Virus record (IMG/VR): IMGVR_UViG_2778261227_000008
Strand: one strand, 5' to 3'
Origin: a virus
Taxonomy: Duplodnaviria; Heunggongvirae; Uroviricota; Caudoviricetes
Length of the DNA stretch: 5,181 nucleotides
In this document: piece after piece, positions 630 to 4,545 of the stretch
How positions within the stretch are numbered: the stretch's first letter is position 1
Layout of the letters: each line of letters starts with the position of its first letter
The notes under the pieces: generated by a model
Databases searched by the model: none
What the model was told of the DNA's origin: nothing
Seen by the model: the letters and a program-made list of their open reading frames with translations, nothing else
Program-made: the position numbers and the translations under genes

Positions 630-1055
630 TCAATGCACAGCCACAATATTTCCTGCAGGGCCACCACGATTCATCTGGTTGAAACCAGCGATCGCCACTG
701 CGACAAAATCATCAGCGTCTCTCACCAGTCGTTCCCGCGTCTCCACTAGTTCCCGAAAATAGGCTGAGCTATGGCTGCGCATTCGGGCCACCAGCAGAGG
801 TGGCATTGCTTTTTCGATAGCTGGTAACAACGCCTGAATTTTTTTAACCGCATCAGGGGTGTCTTTCTCCACCCAGCGGAAAATTTTCTGAGTATTGCGT
901 GCCAGGGCTTCCGGATGGCTGTCGTCATACAGTTCCGGGAACGTAATTCCCAGTTCGAAATACGCTTTGGTAATCTCTGCAGCCGGTACTTTCTCGCCGT
1001 CCGGATGTGCCCAGGCATTCATCGCCATGCGGATGTGTTCATGCTTGATTTTCAT
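630..1055 (-). CDS. ydaT: YdaT-like protein, 141 aa (CII-like regulator of Rac/CP-933P-type prophages; historically annotated as a toxin)
   Basis: ORF-track protein starts MKIKHEHI and is 141 aa. It lies immediately downstream of a Cro-like gene, with ATGA start/stop overlap at 1052-1055. Size and synteny match Rac ydaS-ydaT. The name is from recollection of the family, not a search. Confidence 0.7.
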   Translation of the reverse strand: MKIKHEHIRMAMNAWAHPDGEKVPAAEITKAYFELGITFPELYDDSHPEALARNTQKIFRWVEKDTPDAVKKIQALLPAIEKAMPPLLVARMRSHSSAYFRELVETRERLVRDADDFVAVAIAGFNQMNRGGPAGNIVAVH

Positions 1056-1354
1056 GAATCAACTCCATCAGATAAGCATGCACTACAATCACCTTCAGCA
1101 TGGACTACATGTGTTTGCCCCAAACGAATGCCGCTCGCATACTCAGGCCAAATAAGCTCCCAATCATGGGGTCGTAGCTCCGCCCTACTTACCTGGCCTT
1201 CCGTCGCAGATTCGATCATAAGGGCGCGGGTTGGAGATATAGCTGCTCGTCCAGACGCCATTTGCGATAAGTAAGATGGCGATACACCAAGTCTGGCCGC
1301 GAATTTCTTAGCATCACCAACTCTCAATGATTTAATAAACTCTTTTAATGTCAT
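1052..1354 (-). CDS. ydaS: YdaS-like Cro/HTH (XRE-family) DNA-binding protein, 100 aa
   Basis: ORF-track protein contains LGVSPSYLSQMASGRAAISPTRALMIESATEGQVSRAELRP, a typical HTH recognition-helix pattern. SD-like GAGGAAGG sits just upstream of ATG at 1354. It is divergent from the repressor-like gene and coupled to ydaT. Confidence 0.7.
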   Translation of the reverse strand: MTLKEFIKSLRVGDAKKFAARLGVSPSYLSQMASGRAAISPTRALMIESATEGQVSRAELRPHDWELIWPEYASGIRLGQTHVVHAEGDCSACLSDGVDS

Positions 1355-1382
1355 ACCTTCCTCGGTTTAGTGTTTTTTTGCG

Positions 1383-1445
1383 AGTTTAGTGTTTAATAAA
1401 CCATTAAGTCAAGTATTTGCTTGTTTAGTGATTACTAAAGATAAT
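1383..1445. promoter_or_regulatory. Divergent promoter/operator region between ydaS and the repressor gene
   Basis: Minus-strand promoter candidate: -35 TTGACT (rc of 1407-1412), 18-nt spacer, -10 TAAACT (rc of 1383-1388). Plus-strand candidate: -35 TTGCTT 1417-1422, 17-nt spacer, -10 GATAAT 1440-1445. The 11-bp palindrome GTTTA-A-TAAAC at 1391-1401 lies in the minus-promoter spacer. Direct repeats GTTTAGTG(T/A)TT at 1365-1375, 1384-1394 and 1423-1433. Elements read by eye, not scored. Confidence 0.5.
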
Positions 1446-1451
1446 TACCAC

Positions 1452-1823
1452 ATGCAAAAAAAAGAAATTCGCCGTTTACGTCTCAAGGAGTGGTTTAAAG
1501 ATAAAACTCTGCCACCCAAAGAGAAGAGCTACCTATCTCAACTAATGAGTGGGAGAGCCTCGTTTGGAGAAAAGGCTGCCAGAAGAATAGAGCAAACATA
1601 CGGGATGCCGGAAGGGTATCTGGATGCGGAATACGCAGAACAACCGGAGGTTTCTCCACCACATGCAGGGTTAACGTCTAATCAACTGGAATTATTGCAG
1701 ATTTTTTCAGCCTTCCCTGAGGATGAGCAACGCCAGATAATCAGCGAGTTAAAGCAGAAAAAAGAATCAATGGAAGACCTCATAGCGAGATGGATTGCGG
1801 CGCAAAAATGCCGCCGCGCCTGA
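1452..1823 (+). CDS. paaR2: HTH transcriptional regulator of a three-component toxin-antitoxin operon, 123 aa; occupies the prophage repressor position
   Basis: ATG at 1452, in frame within track ORF 1389..1823; the GTG at 1389 has no SD. XRE-like segment EKSYLSQLMSGRASFGEKAARRIEQTYGMPEGYL. It is divergent from the Cro-like gene and followed by an antitoxin-toxin pair. Identified as paaR2 from memory of the E. coli O157:H7 paaR2-paaA2-parE2 system; paralogue number not verifiable here. Confidence 0.65.
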   Translation: MQKKEIRRLRLKEWFKDKTLPPKEKSYLSQLMSGRASFGEKAARRIEQTYGMPEGYLDAEYAEQPEVSPPHAGLTSNQLELLQIFSAFPEDEQRQIISELKQKKESMEDLIARWIAAQKCRRA

Positions 1824-1843
1824 GTTATAAAACCGGAGGAAAC

Positions 1844-2035
1844 ATGAATAGAGCCCTTTCACCAATGGTTTCTGAGTTTGAAACCATTGAACAAGAAAAC
1901 AGTTACAACGAATGGCTGCGTGCGAAAGTAGCAACGAGCCTTGCAGATCCGCGCCCAGCAATTCCTCATGACGAAGTTGAGCGCAGAATGGCAGAACGCT
2001 TTGCTAAAATGCGCAAGGAACGGAGCAAGCAGTAA
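1844..2035 (+). CDS. paaA2: Small antitoxin, 63 aa (PaaA2-like)
   Basis: ATG at 1844 with SD GGAGGA at 1835-1840, in frame within track ORF 1790..2035. Product is MNRALSPMVSEFETIEQENSYNEWLRAKVATSLADPRPAIPHDEVERRMAERFAKMRKERSKQ. Its stop is 1 nt before the toxin start. Size and position fit the antitoxin of the ParE2 system, as recalled. Confidence 0.7.
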   Translation: MNRALSPMVSEFETIEQENSYNEWLRAKVATSLADPRPAIPHDEVERRMAERFAKMRKERSKQ

Positions 2036-2036
2036 A

Positions 2037-2315
2037 ATGTTACCCGTATTATGGCTTGAAAGCGCAGATACCGACTTGGATGATATAACTGGTTATATTG
2101 CTCGTTTCGACATAGATGCGGCAGAACGCTTATGGCAGCGATTAAGGGGTTGTGTGCTGCCGTTATCCGAACACCCGTATTTATACCCACCAAGCGACAG
2201 GGTGCCTGGCTTGCGTGAGATTGTGGCCCACCCTAACTATATAATTCTATACCGCGTAACAACATCAAGCGTTGAAGTAGTAAACGTGATCCACGCAAGA
2301 CGCCAGTTTCCCTAA
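2037..2315 (+). CDS. parE2: RelE/ParE-superfamily toxin, 92 aa (ParE2-like)
   Basis: ATG at 2037, in frame within track ORF 1941..2315. C-terminal pattern YIILYRVTTSSVEVVNVIHARRQFP is typical of ParE/RelE folds. Tightly coupled to the upstream antitoxin. Confidence 0.7.
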   Translation: MLPVLWLESADTDLDDITGYIARFDIDAAERLWQRLRGCVLPLSEHPYLYPPSDRVPGLREIVAHPNYIILYRVTTSSVEVVNVIHARRQFP

Positions 2316-2386
2316 CTTTCACTACCAATAGAAACATAACAACCGCAACGACTTTATCAAAAGCGTTGTGTTTGTTTCGTGTTGTG

Positions 2387-2428
2387 GTTTAGTTTTTACT
2401 TGACTTGAGTTTAATGTTTATTAAACTA
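2387..2428 (+). promoter_or_regulatory. Second operator/promoter copy (PL-like) pointing rightward toward the ydfA-like gene
   Basis: -35 TTGACT 2400-2405, 16-nt spacer, -10 TAAACT 2422-2427. Palindrome GTTTA-T-TAAAC at 2416-2426. The 22-mer gagtttaatgtttattaaacta (2407-2428) matches gagtttagtgtttaataaacca (1382-1403) at 19 of 22 positions. Half-site-like GTTTAGTTTTT at 2387-2397. Confidence 0.5.
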
Positions 2429-2603
2429 CAAATACCAACCCACCCCGCCCCACAGAATGCAGGGCAATACTTCGAGTTACCCGGCAGTGGTCAGGGGTTA
2501 AGTAGCCAGCCCGAGGCGTATGAACATGACGGCAGGGTTCAACTTTAACTATGCAGCAGGTTTTTGTTCCGCTACCCCGGCGTTAAGGGGAAATGAGGTC
2601 AAC

Positions 2604-2756
2604 ATGGATACTATCGATCTTGGCAACAGCGAATCTCTGGTATGTGGCGTGTTTCCCAACCAGGACGGTACGTTCACCGCGATGACGTATACCAAAAGCA
2701 AAACGTTTAAAACCGAAGCTGGCGCGCGTCGCTGGTTATCCAGAAATACTGACTGA
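2604..2756 (+). CDS. Small YdaF/YdfA-like prophage protein, 50 aa
   Basis: ATG at 2604 with GAGG at 2594-2597, in frame within track ORF 2520..2756. Product MDTIDLGNSESLVCGVFPNQDGTFTAMTYTKSKTFKTEAGARRWLSRNTD resembles the ~51-aa Rac YdaF / Qin YdfA proteins as I remember them. First gene after the PL-like promoter. Confidence 0.55.
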   Translation: MDTIDLGNSESLVCGVFPNQDGTFTAMTYTKSKTFKTEAGARRWLSRNTD

Positions 2757-3142
2757 TGAGATTAACGATGGAATTTAAAGATTTACCAACACCTTTCCAG
2801 GAAATGGCAGCGAATATAGTTCGTTCTCAATTGGCGACTCTTGACCTGAGTACCGTAGAAAAAGAAACCATAGATAATATATCCGGTAACGTGCGCCGTG
2901 CCTTTATCGGGTTGTACGAAGAGAAGCAGCACTCTGATAAGCATGATTCCTCTGAAAAATACTTCCTGGAATTAATGGATATCATTAACAAGGGGTTTGG
3001 TTTGTTGATGGAAAAGAAAGGGATTCGAATAGAACCCCTTAAAAACCATTTTACTGAGTGCAACATTAATTCCTGTGATTTAAAGCATCCCACTTCAGAT
3101 GGGAAAGTTGAAGCCAACTATAAAATATCAATTAATCATTAA
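2756..3142 (+). CDS. Hypothetical protein, 128 aa (124 aa if started at ATG 2768); no domain recognised; apparently AT-rich
   Basis: Track ORF 2756..3142. The ATG at 2756 overlaps the upstream stop (TGATG). Base composition looks clearly more AT-rich than flanking genes by eye (not computed). No motif I can assign. Confidence 0.5.
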   Translation: MRLTMEFKDLPTPFQEMAANIVRSQLATLDLSTVEKETIDNISGNVRRAFIGLYEEKQHSDKHDSSEKYFLELMDIINKGFGLLMEKKGIRIEPLKNHFTECNINSCDLKHPTSDGKVEANYKISINH

Positions 3143-3220: not shown

Positions 3221-3667
3221 CTAACCACAAAGAAATCGCATCAATTTAGATTTTGTGGGCAGCTTCTCTTGTTGTTCGATGGAAACGCCTATTTTGATCT
3301 GTGTTTTTAAGATCGCAATATCTTTAAGTGATGACCAAATATGATCATCCGTTTTTTCCAGAATTTTTAACTGCATTTTCAATTCAGAATCAGAATATTT
3401 TTCTGCATCATCAAAAAGCTGCAAATATTCTGCGGATTTTCTCATGGCGTTACCTGACTTTTGTCCGAATCCATAAATCGTTTGGACGGTTGCGATCACA
3501 ACAATAAAAACGCCAGAAATTTCCGGAATGAATCCGCCAATGACAGATGAACCGAGGATAATACTCACCACTGAGAGAAGTTTATCGAGACGACCAGTCG
3601 CTACAGAAAATAGTTGCTCAAGAAAATAGCCATATAAAATTCTGTCAAGAATATCATCCCGGTCCAT
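3221..3667 (-). CDS. Small two-transmembrane membrane protein, 148 aa; SieB-like (superinfection exclusion) by position, or a SLATT-like 2-TM effector
   Basis: Track ORF; ATG at 3667 with AGGTGA upstream. Two hydrophobic helices (LLSVVSIILGSSVIGGFI and ISGVFIVVIATVQTIYGF) followed by a charged helical tail. Orientation opposite to the PL-like operon and adjacent to a ydaF-like gene, as sieB is in Rac. Functional name is inference. Confidence 0.55.
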   Translation of the reverse strand: MDRDDILDRILYGYFLEQLFSVATGRLDKLLSVVSIILGSSVIGGFIPEISGVFIVVIATVQTIYGFGQKSGNAMRKSAEYLQLFDDAEKYSDSELKMQLKILEKTDDHIWSSLKDIAILKTQIKIGVSIEQQEKLPTKSKLMRFLCG

Positions 3668-3673
3668 ACATCA

Positions 3674-3820
3674 TCACCTGCTTGTTTGGTTGTTGCTGTT
3701 CCCCCTCTCCTCCGAAGGAGCTGGAGATGGTTTTGGTCGAATGTTTTTCTCTGGTATGTGATCCCAGACTGTTTTATGTGTCGAATTGCCACCACCTGCT
3801 TGTGCTCTTTGCTCTGTCAT
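3674..3820 (-). CDS. Possible small ORF, 48 aa, immediately upstream of the two-TM gene; uncertain
   Basis: Internal ATG of track ORF 3674..3937, with AAGGA 6 nt upstream. Its stop TGA is 7 nt before the two-TM gene ATG. Product MTEQRAQAGGGNSTHKTVWDHIPEKNIRPKPSPAPSEERGNSNNQTSR is hydrophilic and low-complexity. A plus-strand ORF at 3727..3882 with SD AAGGAG competes for the same DNA. Confidence 0.25.
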   Translation of the reverse strand: MTEQRAQAGGGNSTHKTVWDHIPEKNIRPKPSPAPSEERGNSNNQTSR

Positions 3821-4119
3821 ATGATTTCCTTGGATCGTTGGGGATATCCAGATTATACAGATTTCTTGTCGTTGGGGAATGACAGGAACCACCTCGCCTG
3901 ACGTGGTTAAAAGCAGGCACACAACACGAAAGCGCACGGCGAAGTCATTTCTCCCTCTGTTGCGTGTCGCCGGTATCTTCGACCGTGCGCTTCCGGTTGT
4001 GGCACTCCGCGAAATGGCGCGGCGGTAAGTATGGCGGGGTTATCCTTACCCCCACTGGTAGCACCGGGTTGTCAGGTTGACCATACGCCTGAGTGACAAC
4101 CCCGCTACAACACTCCATG

Positions 4120-4176
4120 TTGATTTGTACCTTTGGCGGCATCAGTTTCATTGCTGGCTGATGTCCCCCCTTTTTA
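4120..4176 (+). ncRNA. dicF: DicF-like small RNA with terminator-like 3' hairpin and U-tract
   Basis: Sits directly upstream of dicB as in the Qin dicB operon. Segment TTTGGCGGCATCAGTTT matches my recollection of E. coli K-12 DicF (TTTGGCGGTATCAGTTT). Stem CATCAG/CTGATG extended by G-C pairs and followed by CCCCCCTTTTT (4165-4175). 5' boundary is estimated; the 5' portion differs from K-12 as I recall it. Confidence 0.5.
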
Positions 4177-4178
4177 AA

Positions 4179-4340
4179 GTGAATTTTGTGATGCGGTGAA
4201 TGCGGCTGAGCGCACGCGGAACAGTTAAAAAGCGATTAGTTCCCCCGTATCGGGTGTTTATGGGTTTCCCTGTATCCGGCGTTAATTGTTAACTGGTTAA
4301 CGTCACCTGGAGGCACCAGGCACCGCATCACAAAATTCAT
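4179..4340 (+). other. 20-bp long-range inverted repeat bracketing the dicB leader
   Basis: GTGAATTTTGTGATGCGGTG at 4179-4198 is the reverse complement of caccgcatcacaaaattcat at 4321-4340 (19 of 20, the last pair G-U in RNA). The 3' arm ends 4 nt before the dicB SD (GAGGA 4345-4349). Confidence 0.6.
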
Positions 4341-4356
4341 TGTTGAGGACGCGATA

Positions 4357-4545
4357 ATGGAAACGTTATTACCAAACGTTAATACGTCTGAAGGTTGTTT
4401 TGAAATTGGTGTCAGAATCAGTAACCCTGTATTTACTGAAGATGCCATTAATAAGAGAAAACACGAACGGGAGTTATTAAATCAAATTTGCATTCTTTCT
4501 ATGCTGGCCCGTTTACGTCCGACTCAAAAAGGATACTGGCAATGA
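4357..4545 (+). CDS. dicB: DicB cell-division inhibitor, 62 aa
   Basis: Hand translation gives METLLPNVNTSEGCFEIGVRISNPVFTEDAINKRKHERELLNQICILSMLARLRPTQKGYWQ, recognised as DicB. SD GAGGA 7 nt upstream. Confidence 0.9.
   Translation: METLLPNVNTSEGCFEIGVRISNPVFTEDAINKRKHERELLNQICILSMLARLRPTQKGYWQ

Follow-up and report, generated by a model that had tools for sequence, protein, structure and literature searches.

The immunity region of a CP-933P/Sp12-type lambdoid prophage with the paaR2-paaA2-parE2 toxin-antitoxin operon in its repressor transcript

The stretch of viral DNA analysed here (the window, 5,181 nucleotides) almost certainly contains the immunity switch of a lambdoid prophage of the CP-933P/Sp12 type, carrying the genes paaR2, paaA2 and parE2. 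The operon is already known from a lambda-like prophage of E. coli, was published in 2021 and 2023 and holds nothing new in itself. The gene identities, the anatomy of operators and promoters and the identity to the studied locus were observed in the window, and DNA binding, repression and activation, bistability and post-segregational killing are taken from the literature on the near-identical locus. On that locus EMSA, footprinting and reporter experiments, of the types proposed in a preliminary description of this DNA, have already been carried out (Jurenas et al. 2021, PMC8630535). Gene calls, Pfam matches and operator and promoter scans recovered, in place, all of the elements that had been described. 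Since the architecture and its analogies to CI, Cro, CII and the rexAB slot have been known since 2021/2023, their discovery value is small; the case illustrates that a regulatory design which is real and has been validated by experiment can be read from sequence alone.

Central to the switch is the operator region OR (1355-1451), a stretch of 97 bp across which the regulator gene paaR2 diverges from the Cro-like gene ydaS, the position of an immunity repressor, just as had been claimed. OR has four operators spaced ~19-20 bp, three of them bearing the motif GTTTAGT (at 1365, 1384 and 1423) and a weaker one lying near 1404. With a further copy at 2387 the motif is found four times in the window against 0.53 expected, a count reached in none of 200 shuffles, and all four copies fall inside the two fragments (1360-1450 and 2380-2430) that had been put forward for binding assays. 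An 18-bp palindrome is matched twice (0.00 expected), at 1384 and 1423, where it overlaps the promoters PR and PRM. The PR-type promoter, found by promoter scan on the minus strand (1412-1383; TTGACT, 18 nt, TAAACT), drives ydaS, ydaT and replication, and its -10 element overlaps the operator at 1384-1401. The PRM-type promoter on the plus strand (1417-1452; TTGCTT, 17 nt, GATAAT) was read directly from the sequence. Its -10 element ends 6 nt upstream of the paaR2 ATG, the gene has no Shine-Dalgarno sequence and the predicted start of transcription is the A of the ATG, i.e. the mRNA would be leaderless. For the reference locus the leaderless start and the N-terminus MQKKE are experimentally established (PMC8630535). 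Divergent repressor and Cro-type genes, a short gap and repeated operators over both promoters give the region the form of a lambdoid switch.

The repressor operon consists of three tightly packed plus-strand genes that occupy 1452-2315. The gaps between them, 20 nt for paaR2/paaA2 and 1 nt for paaA2/parE2, fit a single operon, and the co-transcription of the toxin-antitoxin pair with the regulator upstream of it, as had been proposed, is published for the reference locus. It is for that locus only that the toxicity of ParE2 (SOS induction), its neutralisation by PaaA2 and the co-transcription of all three genes are reported. The first gene, paaR2 (1452-1823), encodes a CI-analogue repressor of 123 aa with an HTH N-domain and an oligomerising C-domain. 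Residues 1-65 are the same as in PDB 7nkv, a structure deposited under the name 'Phage repressor protein CI', and the protein belongs to the transcriptional regulators of phrog_5736 (PHROG, E=1.6e-39); a Pfam scan of the 123-aa protein gave zero matches, including none to the Peptidase_S24 autocleavage domain. The second gene, paaA2 (1844-2035), encodes an antitoxin of 63 aa, residues 2-63 of which are identical to PDB 3zbe and which matches Pfam PF21217 (PaaA2) with 70.7 bits against a cut-off of 27; published work has shown that PaaA2 has no DNA-binding domain and that it is degraded by ClpAP/ClpXP. The third gene, parE2 (2037-2315), encodes a ParE-family toxin of 92 aa that is identical at 91 of 92 residues to the ParE2 of PDB 5cw7 (5cw7_B) and matches Pfam PF05016 (ParE_toxin) with 59.6 bits against a cut-off of 23. 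A ParE-family toxin, a PaaA-type antitoxin directly upstream and a separate HTH gene, paaR, in first place together constitute a PaaR-PaaA-ParE three-component system. The promoter scan gave no plus-strand promoter for the toxin-antitoxin pair in 1823-2037, the sole plus-strand hit (2056-2084) lying within parE2.

On the divergent side, the minus-strand genes run from a switch regulator through an activator into replication. The Cro-like HTH regulator YdaS (1052-1354) matches Pfam YdaS_toxin (46.2 bits), HTH_3 and, weakly, P22_Cro. It is followed by ydaT (630-1055), which encodes a CII-like activator, a POU-type HTH tetramer, that matches Pfam YdaT_toxin and, among PDB entries, scores 303.8 bits with 3c4r and 267.3 bits with 8bt1 (the YdaT of CP-933P). 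At the ydaS/ydaT junction, beside the promoter PRE, lies the high-affinity YdaT operator OM (1045-1062; TTGATTTTCATGAATCAA), an exact match to the published 5'-TTGATTN6AATCAA-3' (one match against 0.03 expected) that agrees in motif and position with PMC9986795. The gene beyond (1-558) encodes the N-terminal part of a lambda-O-like replication initiator and runs off the window; it belongs to the replication initiation proteins of phrog_3729 (PHROG, E=1.6e-92) and contains iteron-like repeats of GTCGTGAC at 101-149 and 371-430. With up to one mismatch this repeat occurs 10 times against 2.75 expected, and 10 was reached in 0 of 200 shuffles.

Beyond the repressor operon lies another set of operators with a promoter that points outward, OL/PL (2386-2427, plus strand), towards the ydfA-dicB operon. 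Its operators are the GTTTAGT at 2387 and GTTTAATGTTTATTAAAC at 2409-2426, and the PL promoter from the promoter scan (2400-2427; TTGACT, 16 nt, TAAACT) has the same hexamers as PR in the opposite direction, PL reading right and PR left. The likeness extends to a 24-nt inverted repeat in which 1391-1414 of OR pairs with 2403-2426 of OL. The regulator is thus flanked, as had been described, by a leftward promoter for ydaS, ydaT and replication and by a rightward promoter for an operon that begins with ydfA (2604-2756, plus strand; DUF1391, 97.8 bits in Pfam) and extends to the cell-division inhibitor gene dicB (4357-4545, plus strand; full-length Pfam DicB match, 123 bits). Between these two genes lies a DicF-like sRNA element (4122-4170, plus strand; Rfam RF00039, E=1.1e-4) whose 30.3 bits are below the gathering score of 48, for which reason it is not claimed as a bona fide DicF gene. 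At gathering thresholds Rfam gave no matches in the whole window; the relaxed search also returned STnc100, likewise sub-threshold (36.7 against 47). Between the parE2 stop and PL an extended plus-strand RNA hairpin is predicted (2314-2394; MFE -22 kcal/mol, z = -3.29, none of 200 shuffles as stable), the 5' part of which (~2314-2376) is invariant across three aligned loci, with several positions in 2377-2385 varying. A scan for a canonical intrinsic plus-strand terminator after parE2 found none, the long hairpin lacking a clean T-run; a function as terminator or insulator is possible.

What is known of the function of this arrangement comes from the reference locus, where PaaR2 has been assigned as the analogue of CI, YdaS of Cro and YdaT of CII (PMC8630535). 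The published assays comprise GFP fusions to PRM, PR, PL and PRE, single-cell bistability and mini-F stabilisation, the reporters having been carried by plasmids in a K-12 background rather than by a single-copy prophage. PaaR2 gives a DNase I footprint over ~78 bp of the intergenic region, the published OR also being 97 bp; it is a repressor of PR (ydaS-ydaT) and PL and, at low concentration, an activator of its own leaderless PRM (PMC8630535). The promoter PL933P, with the hexamers of PR, is repressed ~100-fold by PaaR2 and YdaS, only one of the two switch states is left when paaR2 carries a stop mutation, and PaaR2 is reported to be unresponsive to mitomycin C (PMC8630535 for the first two). 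These experiments concern a locus with an identical OR and with PaaR2, YdaS and PaaA2 that are 99-100% identical to those here, and they bear out the proposal that the regulator is the maintenance repressor.

In the mechanism proposed for the window, PaaR2 translated from the leaderless PRM mRNA would bind the GTTTAGT-type operators in OR and OL, holding down PR (ydaS-ydaT-replication) and PL (ydfA, the DicF-like element and dicB), with low PaaR2 stimulating its own promoter. YdaS would compete in a Cro-like manner for the PaaR2 operators, a competition that would make the switch bistable, and YdaT, acting like CII at TTGATTN6AATCAA, would activate a PRE-like promoter from which transcription returns into paaR2. 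The repressor transcript would carry paaA2 and parE2 along as passengers, in the position that lambda gives to rexAB. With PaaA2 unstable, ParE2 would be freed only upon loss of the locus, so that the pair would act as an addiction module stabilising the immunity region.

Is the release of the toxin, then, linked to the state of the switch? The preliminary description had suggested that it is, such that when PaaR2 control is lost YdaS would shut PRM, the labile PaaA2 would decay and ParE2 would be set free. Such a sequence would fit the proteolysis of PaaA2 and the empty promoter scan of 1823-2037, together with the reports that YdaS is a stronger repressor of PRM than PaaR2 and that PRM activation needs low PaaR2, but it is opposed by a published test in which 0.876% of cells were SOS-positive with ydaST on and 0.953% with RAE2 on (P = 0.62), the fraction in both states being that of construct-free cells (PMC8630535). 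Moreover, mScarlet placed 3' of parE2 was expressed in both states and the toxin-antitoxin operon is transcribed in both, the YdaT-activated PRE providing an alternative route in the 'lytic' state, and ParE2 was activated only upon locus loss, through post-segregational killing (PMC8630535). Killing coupled to de-repression is thus largely refuted for the steady state and, taken as a whole, is unlikely. Of the earlier interpretation, the position of the repressor, the rexAB-like placing of the toxin-antitoxin pair and the role as maintenance repressor stand; toxin release on de-repression was not seen in the published test.

The distribution of the genes bears on what the pair contributes. The paaR2-paaA2-parE2 module is present in ~11% of complete E. 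coli genomes, and it is complete in the isolated coliphage Evi (97.4% identity). Of the PaaR2-homologue loci in 27 further species the divergent YdaS is kept in 22, with YdaT also in 11, and PaaA2/ParE2 were detected in none by tblastn (E <= 1e-3), nor by Pfam in six sampled downstream ORFs, a search that sampled part of those ORFs and could miss very divergent small antitoxins. The toxin-antitoxin pair therefore looks like an accessory insertion. The comparison shows a PaaR2-YdaS switch that is widespread, both within Enterobacterales and outside them, with no detectable toxin-antitoxin pair, and it supports the published guess that an immunity operon was there first and the pair was inserted into it. 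The slot behind the repressor varies in content, as expected for a moron or defence hotspot; in Photorhabdus caribbeanensis it holds a HipA-like kinase. That variability, and the sharing of a slot with rexAB, would suit a pair that resembles RexAB in function as well, giving superinfection exclusion or abortive-infection defence from the lysogenic transcript. This is quite unlikely, as PADLOC has no defence model matching PaaR2, PaaA2 or ParE2, so that the pair is not filed as a known defence system, and the published phenotype is addiction, phage exclusion being unreported in the literature consulted on the system.

For the window variant and Evi a further reading is distinctly doubtful, namely that PaaR2 is a single master repressor whose acute loss would co-release ParE2, DicB and DicF, with paaA2-parE2 acting as a Rex-like abortive-infection or anti-recombination device. 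It concerns non-steady-state conditions outside the published plasmid experiments, such as would arise, for example, when a hetero-immune phage superinfects or when recombination replaces the immunity region. Evi is an isolated phage and CP-933P is defective, which makes Evi the better of the two for experiments. Finally, that PaaR2 is the detached, autoregulatory DNA-binding module of a tripartite toxin-antitoxin system (a 'split antitoxin'), the true repressor lying elsewhere in the prophage, is very improbable and already contradicted: PaaR2 was originally described as the system's third component, PaaA2 cannot supply a DNA-binding domain and PaaR2 has no Pfam repressor domain, but its repression reaches beyond its own promoter, its stop mutant lacks a switch state, its homologues usually accompany YdaS where the pair is undetected, all four of the long homologues scanned (207-218 aa, from Yersinia, Erwinia, Mycoavidus and a Neisseriaceae bacterium) join the same HTH domain to a CI/LexA-type Peptidase_S24 domain like classical CI, and gene calls and Pfam found no other repressor-like gene in the part of this window that separates the dicB operon from the replication genes.

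The closest known relative is CP-933P of E. coli O157:H7 EDL933, which corresponds to Sp12 of Sakai and agrees with the window in the order and spacing of the genes. Over all 97 bp of OR the sequence is that of the O55:H7 DEC5E (CP-933P-type) and STEC388 loci (100% identity), YdaS matches the alleles of O55:H7 and STEC388 at 99-100% identity, PaaA2 is identical to that of the CP-933P-type locus, and PaaR2 and ParE2 are each 99% identical to the studied proteins, with one residue differing in each (G66E and S19G, respectively). The PL/OL hexamers and the YdaT operator are also those of the CP-933P-type locus, and OL is nearly identical to the O55:H7 locus, with substitutions at 2407, 2429 and within 2377-2385. 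YdaT, in contrast, has no more than 84% identity with the CP-933P-type allele and is nearer to the O6:H1 protein of PDB 3c4r. Downstream of PL the window has an intact operon of ydfA, the DicF-like element, dicB and ydfD together with a rare 1.3-kb cassette, whereas the CP-933P-type locus is rearranged there, with no ydfA/dicB and only ydfC and an ECs_2282-family gene. The window is a mosaic: the whole 5.2 kb was found at >=80% coverage in only 1 of 5,426 complete E. coli genomes, among which there was no match above 98.6% for the coding part nor above 81% coverage for the whole window. We infer that the published results transfer to this mosaic variant and that PL controls its intact dicB operon.

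In the E. coli K-12 prophages Qin (dicA-dicC / ydfA-dicF-dicB) and Rac (racR / ydaS-ydaT) a repressor likewise sits between a Cro-like leftward and a dicB- or kil-type rightward operon, and the ydfA, dicB, ydaS and ydaT families are common to them and the window (Pfam). Neither is known to have a toxin-antitoxin pair after the repressor. CP-933P and Rac share no more than 26% identity in YdaS and 31% in YdaT (PMC8630535). The C-terminus of PaaR2 resembles that of DicA, only residues 70-119 aligning; the match scores 28.8 bits where the cut-off is 101, which leaves PaaR2 outside the DicA family as defined by the NCBIfam model NF007257.

Compared with lambda (cI-rexA-rexB, OR/OL, cro, cII and O), there are four operators instead of three (PMC8630535), the repressor is without the S24 domain for RecA-stimulated autocleavage of classical CI (Pfam) and YdaT is a POU-type tetramer and not of the CII fold (PMC9986795). 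The Pfam scan reported no lambda CI, RexA or RexB family, the slot genes being those for PaaA2 and ParE, and the rexAB analogy is positional only; in those terms the claimed cI-rexAB position agrees with the statement that paaA2-parE2 'replaces rexA and rexB' and PaaR2 replaces CI (Prolic-Kalinsek et al. 2023, PMC9986795). Layout and logic are nonetheless the same as in lambda: a leaderless repressor gene divergent from a Cro-type gene over a multi-operator region, two accessory genes on the repressor transcript, a second set of operators and promoter beyond the repressor operon, and a CII-type activator followed by an iteron-bearing O gene.

The window (5,181 bp) is the early/immunity region of an Escherichia coli lambdoid prophage (Rac/Qin-type). 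Its minus strand carries the first part (186 N-terminal codons) of a lambda-O-like replication initiator (1-558; E=1.6e-92 to a PHROG replication initiation protein), ydaT (630-1055; Pfam YdaT_toxin) and ydaS (1052-1354; Pfam YdaS_toxin/HTH_3), which a 97-bp intergenic region (1355-1451) separates from three plus-strand genes for the regulator (paaR2, 1452-1823), the antitoxin (paaA2, 1844-2035; PaaA2 family, 70.7 bits, cut-off 27) and the toxin (parE2, 2037-2315; ParE family, 59.6 bits, cut-off 23), spaced by 20 nt and then 1 nt. After a 288-bp spacer come ydfA (2604-2756, plus strand; DUF1391), a 124-aa ORF (2768-3142, plus) where K-12-type loci have ydfB/ydfC, a 148-aa ORF encoding a pair of neighbouring hydrophobic helices (3221-3667, minus), a small ORF (3674-3823, minus), a sub-threshold Rfam match to DicF (4122-4170, plus) and dicB (4357-4545, plus; Pfam DicB, 123 bits), to the right of which a ydfD-like ORF is followed by the first part of an exonuclease gene of CP-933P type. 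The elements listed in the preliminary description were all found where it had placed them. Inside the O-like gene, GTCGTGAC repeats reach 10 matches (at most 1 mismatch) against 2.75 expected; they form two clusters, 97-150 and 369-430, with ~10-bp spacing, and look like origin iterons within an initiator gene, by analogy with the lambda ori.

The three plus-strand genes encode the structurally characterised PaaR2, PaaA2 and ParE2. Over residues 1-65 the regulator has exactly the sequence of PDB 7nkv/8c3k, deposited under the name 'Phage repressor protein CI', antitoxin residues 2-63 are identical to PaaA2 of PDB 3zbe, and the toxin matches ParE2 of PDB 5cw7 at 91 of 92 positions. YdaT matches PDB 3c4r at 303.8 bits and 8bt1, the CP-933P YdaT structure, at 267.3 bits. 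A Pfam scan of PaaR2 returned no S24 autocleavage domain. Its C-terminal half (residues 70-119; window 1659-1808) aligns to the C-terminal end of DicA, the repressor of Qin (NCBIfam NF007257, E=9e-7, far under the cut-off); this suggests a putative oligomerisation module in common, although the HTH domains are unlike.

The half-site GTTTAGT occurs four times (1365, 1384, 1423 and 2387) where 0.53 copies are expected, a count reached in 0 of 200 shuffles, and it is confined to the two fragments that the preliminary description had proposed testing; two matches to the complete 18-bp palindrome lie at 1384-1401 and 1423-1440, with an expectation of 0.00. A promoter scan gives twin sites with the same hexamers, TTGACT/TAAACT, one leftward (PR, 1412-1383) and one rightward (PL, 2400-2427), and an inverted repeat of 24 nt pairs 1391-1414 with 2403-2426. 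Direct reading adds a weaker rightward promoter (TTGCTT-17 nt-GATAAT, 1417-1445) ending 6 nt 5' of the regulator ATG; since no Shine-Dalgarno sequence precedes this start, the mRNA would be leaderless, and in CP-933P 5'-RACE and N-terminal sequencing (MQKKE) did find paaR2 leaderless like cI (PMC8630535). The YdaT operator 5'-TTGATTN6AATCAA-3' has one exact occurrence in the window (1045-1062), at the ydaS/ydaT junction, where it has also been placed in CP-933P (PMC9986795). Between the parE2 stop and PL a long RNA hairpin is predicted (2314-2394, plus; -22 kcal/mol, z = -3.3), its 5' part unchanged across three aligned loci; it does not qualify as a canonical terminator, and a possible role is to keep the repressor transcript insulated from the PL operon.

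This architecture, a regulator in the repressor position with the toxin-antitoxin pair downstream, was rightly read, and it is published for the near-identical CP-933P locus (Jurenas et al. 2021, mBio, PMC8630535). Prolic-Kalinsek et al. 2023 (PMC9986795) likewise have paaA2-parE2 taking the place of rexA and rexB, and PaaR2 that of CI. At the CP-933P locus the experiments were as follows. EMSA and DNase I footprinting located protection within the 97-bp region (~78 bp by PaaR2, ~65 bp by YdaS), and in assays with GFP fusions both proteins repressed PR and the paaR2 promoter PRM, with low levels of PaaR2 activating PRM and repressing PR. Downstream of parE2 there is a third promoter, PL933P, which has the hexamers of PR and three operators and is repressed ~100-fold by either regulator; between ydaS and ydaT, YdaT activates a PRE-like promoter (PMC8630535). 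The view of the regulator as the maintenance repressor is correct, repression of PR and PL being in print. Single cells hold one of two heritable, mutually exclusive states, ydaST-on or RAE2-on (paaR2-paaA2-parE2).

How, then, is the toxin tied to this switch? The proposed coupling of toxin release to prophage de-repression is unsupported: with an SOS reporter, positive cells make up 0.876% of the ydaST-on and 0.953% of the RAE2-on population (P = 0.62), neither value differing from that of construct-free cells, and the toxin-antitoxin operon is transcribed in both states (PMC8630535). ParE2 activation occurred only upon locus loss, read out as mini-F stabilisation; PaaR2 was reported without a mitomycin C response, and the authors proposed that the immunity region gained the pair by insertion and that it acts as an addiction module limiting rearrangements (PMC8630535). 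Killing of a Rex-like or anti-recombination kind, set off outside steady state, is improbable.

With each species represented by one genome, a scan relying on conserved peptide words found PaaR2 homologues of 44-76% identity at 27 loci in other taxa (Xenorhabdus, Photorhabdus, Yersinia, Erwinia, Morganella, Raoultella, Enterobacter, Arsenophonus, Mycoavidus and Massilia among them). By tblastn, a divergent YdaS homologue (51-63% identity) is kept at 22 of these and YdaT at 11, and PaaA2 or ParE2 was detected at none, small divergent antitoxins being able to slip past such a search. The genes 3' of the repressor differ from locus to locus, and in the part of these downstream ORFs scanned for families several matched none. 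Thus PaaR2 and YdaS make up the conserved core, a true immunity switch, to which the toxin-antitoxin pair is a passenger, lineage-specific and lodged in a slot of variable content; this speaks against PaaR2 as the DNA-binding part of a 'split antitoxin'. In Photorhabdus caribbeanensis (L014:3540-5098) a HipA_2-family kinase gene (231 bits) and a 272-aa ORF directly follow the PaaR2 homologue, and the slot of paaA2-parE2 may there hold another toxin type. Eight homologues are long (207-222 aa), and all four scanned (207-218 aa) carry Peptidase_S24, which makes the classical CI/LexA architecture. These four (L017 Yersinia aleksiciae, L020 Erwinia sp., L021 Mycoavidus, L028 Neisseriaceae bacterium) share the PaaR2 HTH domain at 45-76% identity over their first 58-114 residues; therefore the DNA-binding domains of the short (123-aa) PaaR2 type and of classical CI repressors capable of autocleavage belong to a single family.

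Within E. coli the module (1355-2603) is present at no less than 80% coverage in 595 of 5,426 complete genomes. Escherichia phage Evi (LR597642), a coliphage described as an isolate from the faeces of infants, carries ydaT-ydaS-paaR2-paaA2-parE2 at 97.4% DNA identity, positioned relative to replication genes and exonuclease as in the window, and therefore the switch is not restricted to defective prophages.

Against the O55:H7 DEC5E locus of CP-933P type, the 97-bp operator region and flanks are 100% identical, PaaR2 and YdaS 99% and YdaT 84%, and PL with its operators differs at few positions, none within promoter hexamers. The window is a mosaic: one complete E. coli genome among the 5,426 covers at least 80% of it, at 93.5% identity, and its YdaT belongs to the O6:H1/3c4r allele type. 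Downstream of PL the operon running from ydfA through the DicF-like element to dicB-ydfD is intact, as the preliminary description said and as in the E. coli locus STEC388, whereas the CP-933P-type locus is rearranged there, and for the ORFs past PL Jurenas et al. had no function to propose (PMC8630535). From the conserved PL and operators we infer that PaaR2 would control the division inhibitors DicB and DicF-like RNA. The DicF-like element (30.3 bits, gathering score 48) has a divergent 5' target-pairing region and may represent a variant of the DicF sRNA whose targets have changed; a partial STnc100-like match follows (4182-4334, plus; 36.7 bits against 47), just 5' of dicB. Segment 2757-4100 is rare, occurring in 14 of the 5,426 genomes, and is also found in prophages annotated with other repressors (LexA-family, racR). 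Within it, the 124-aa ORF matches phrog_6937 over its full length, its N-terminal 60 residues being common to several other PHROGs, and the 148-aa ORF, oriented against the rightward PL operon, matches phrog_6315 and, weakly, a PADLOC RT-associated SLATT effector (E=0.002); its product could act at the membrane, as a moron or as a defence effector. Overall, the preliminary interpretation is partly supported. The experiments it proposed were essentially already performed by Jurenas et al. (PMC8630535), and with conclusions also in print its title and main interpretation restate published ones: the feature is real, rightly located and rightly read in its main lines, and is an already known, experimentally dissected system of near-identical sequence.
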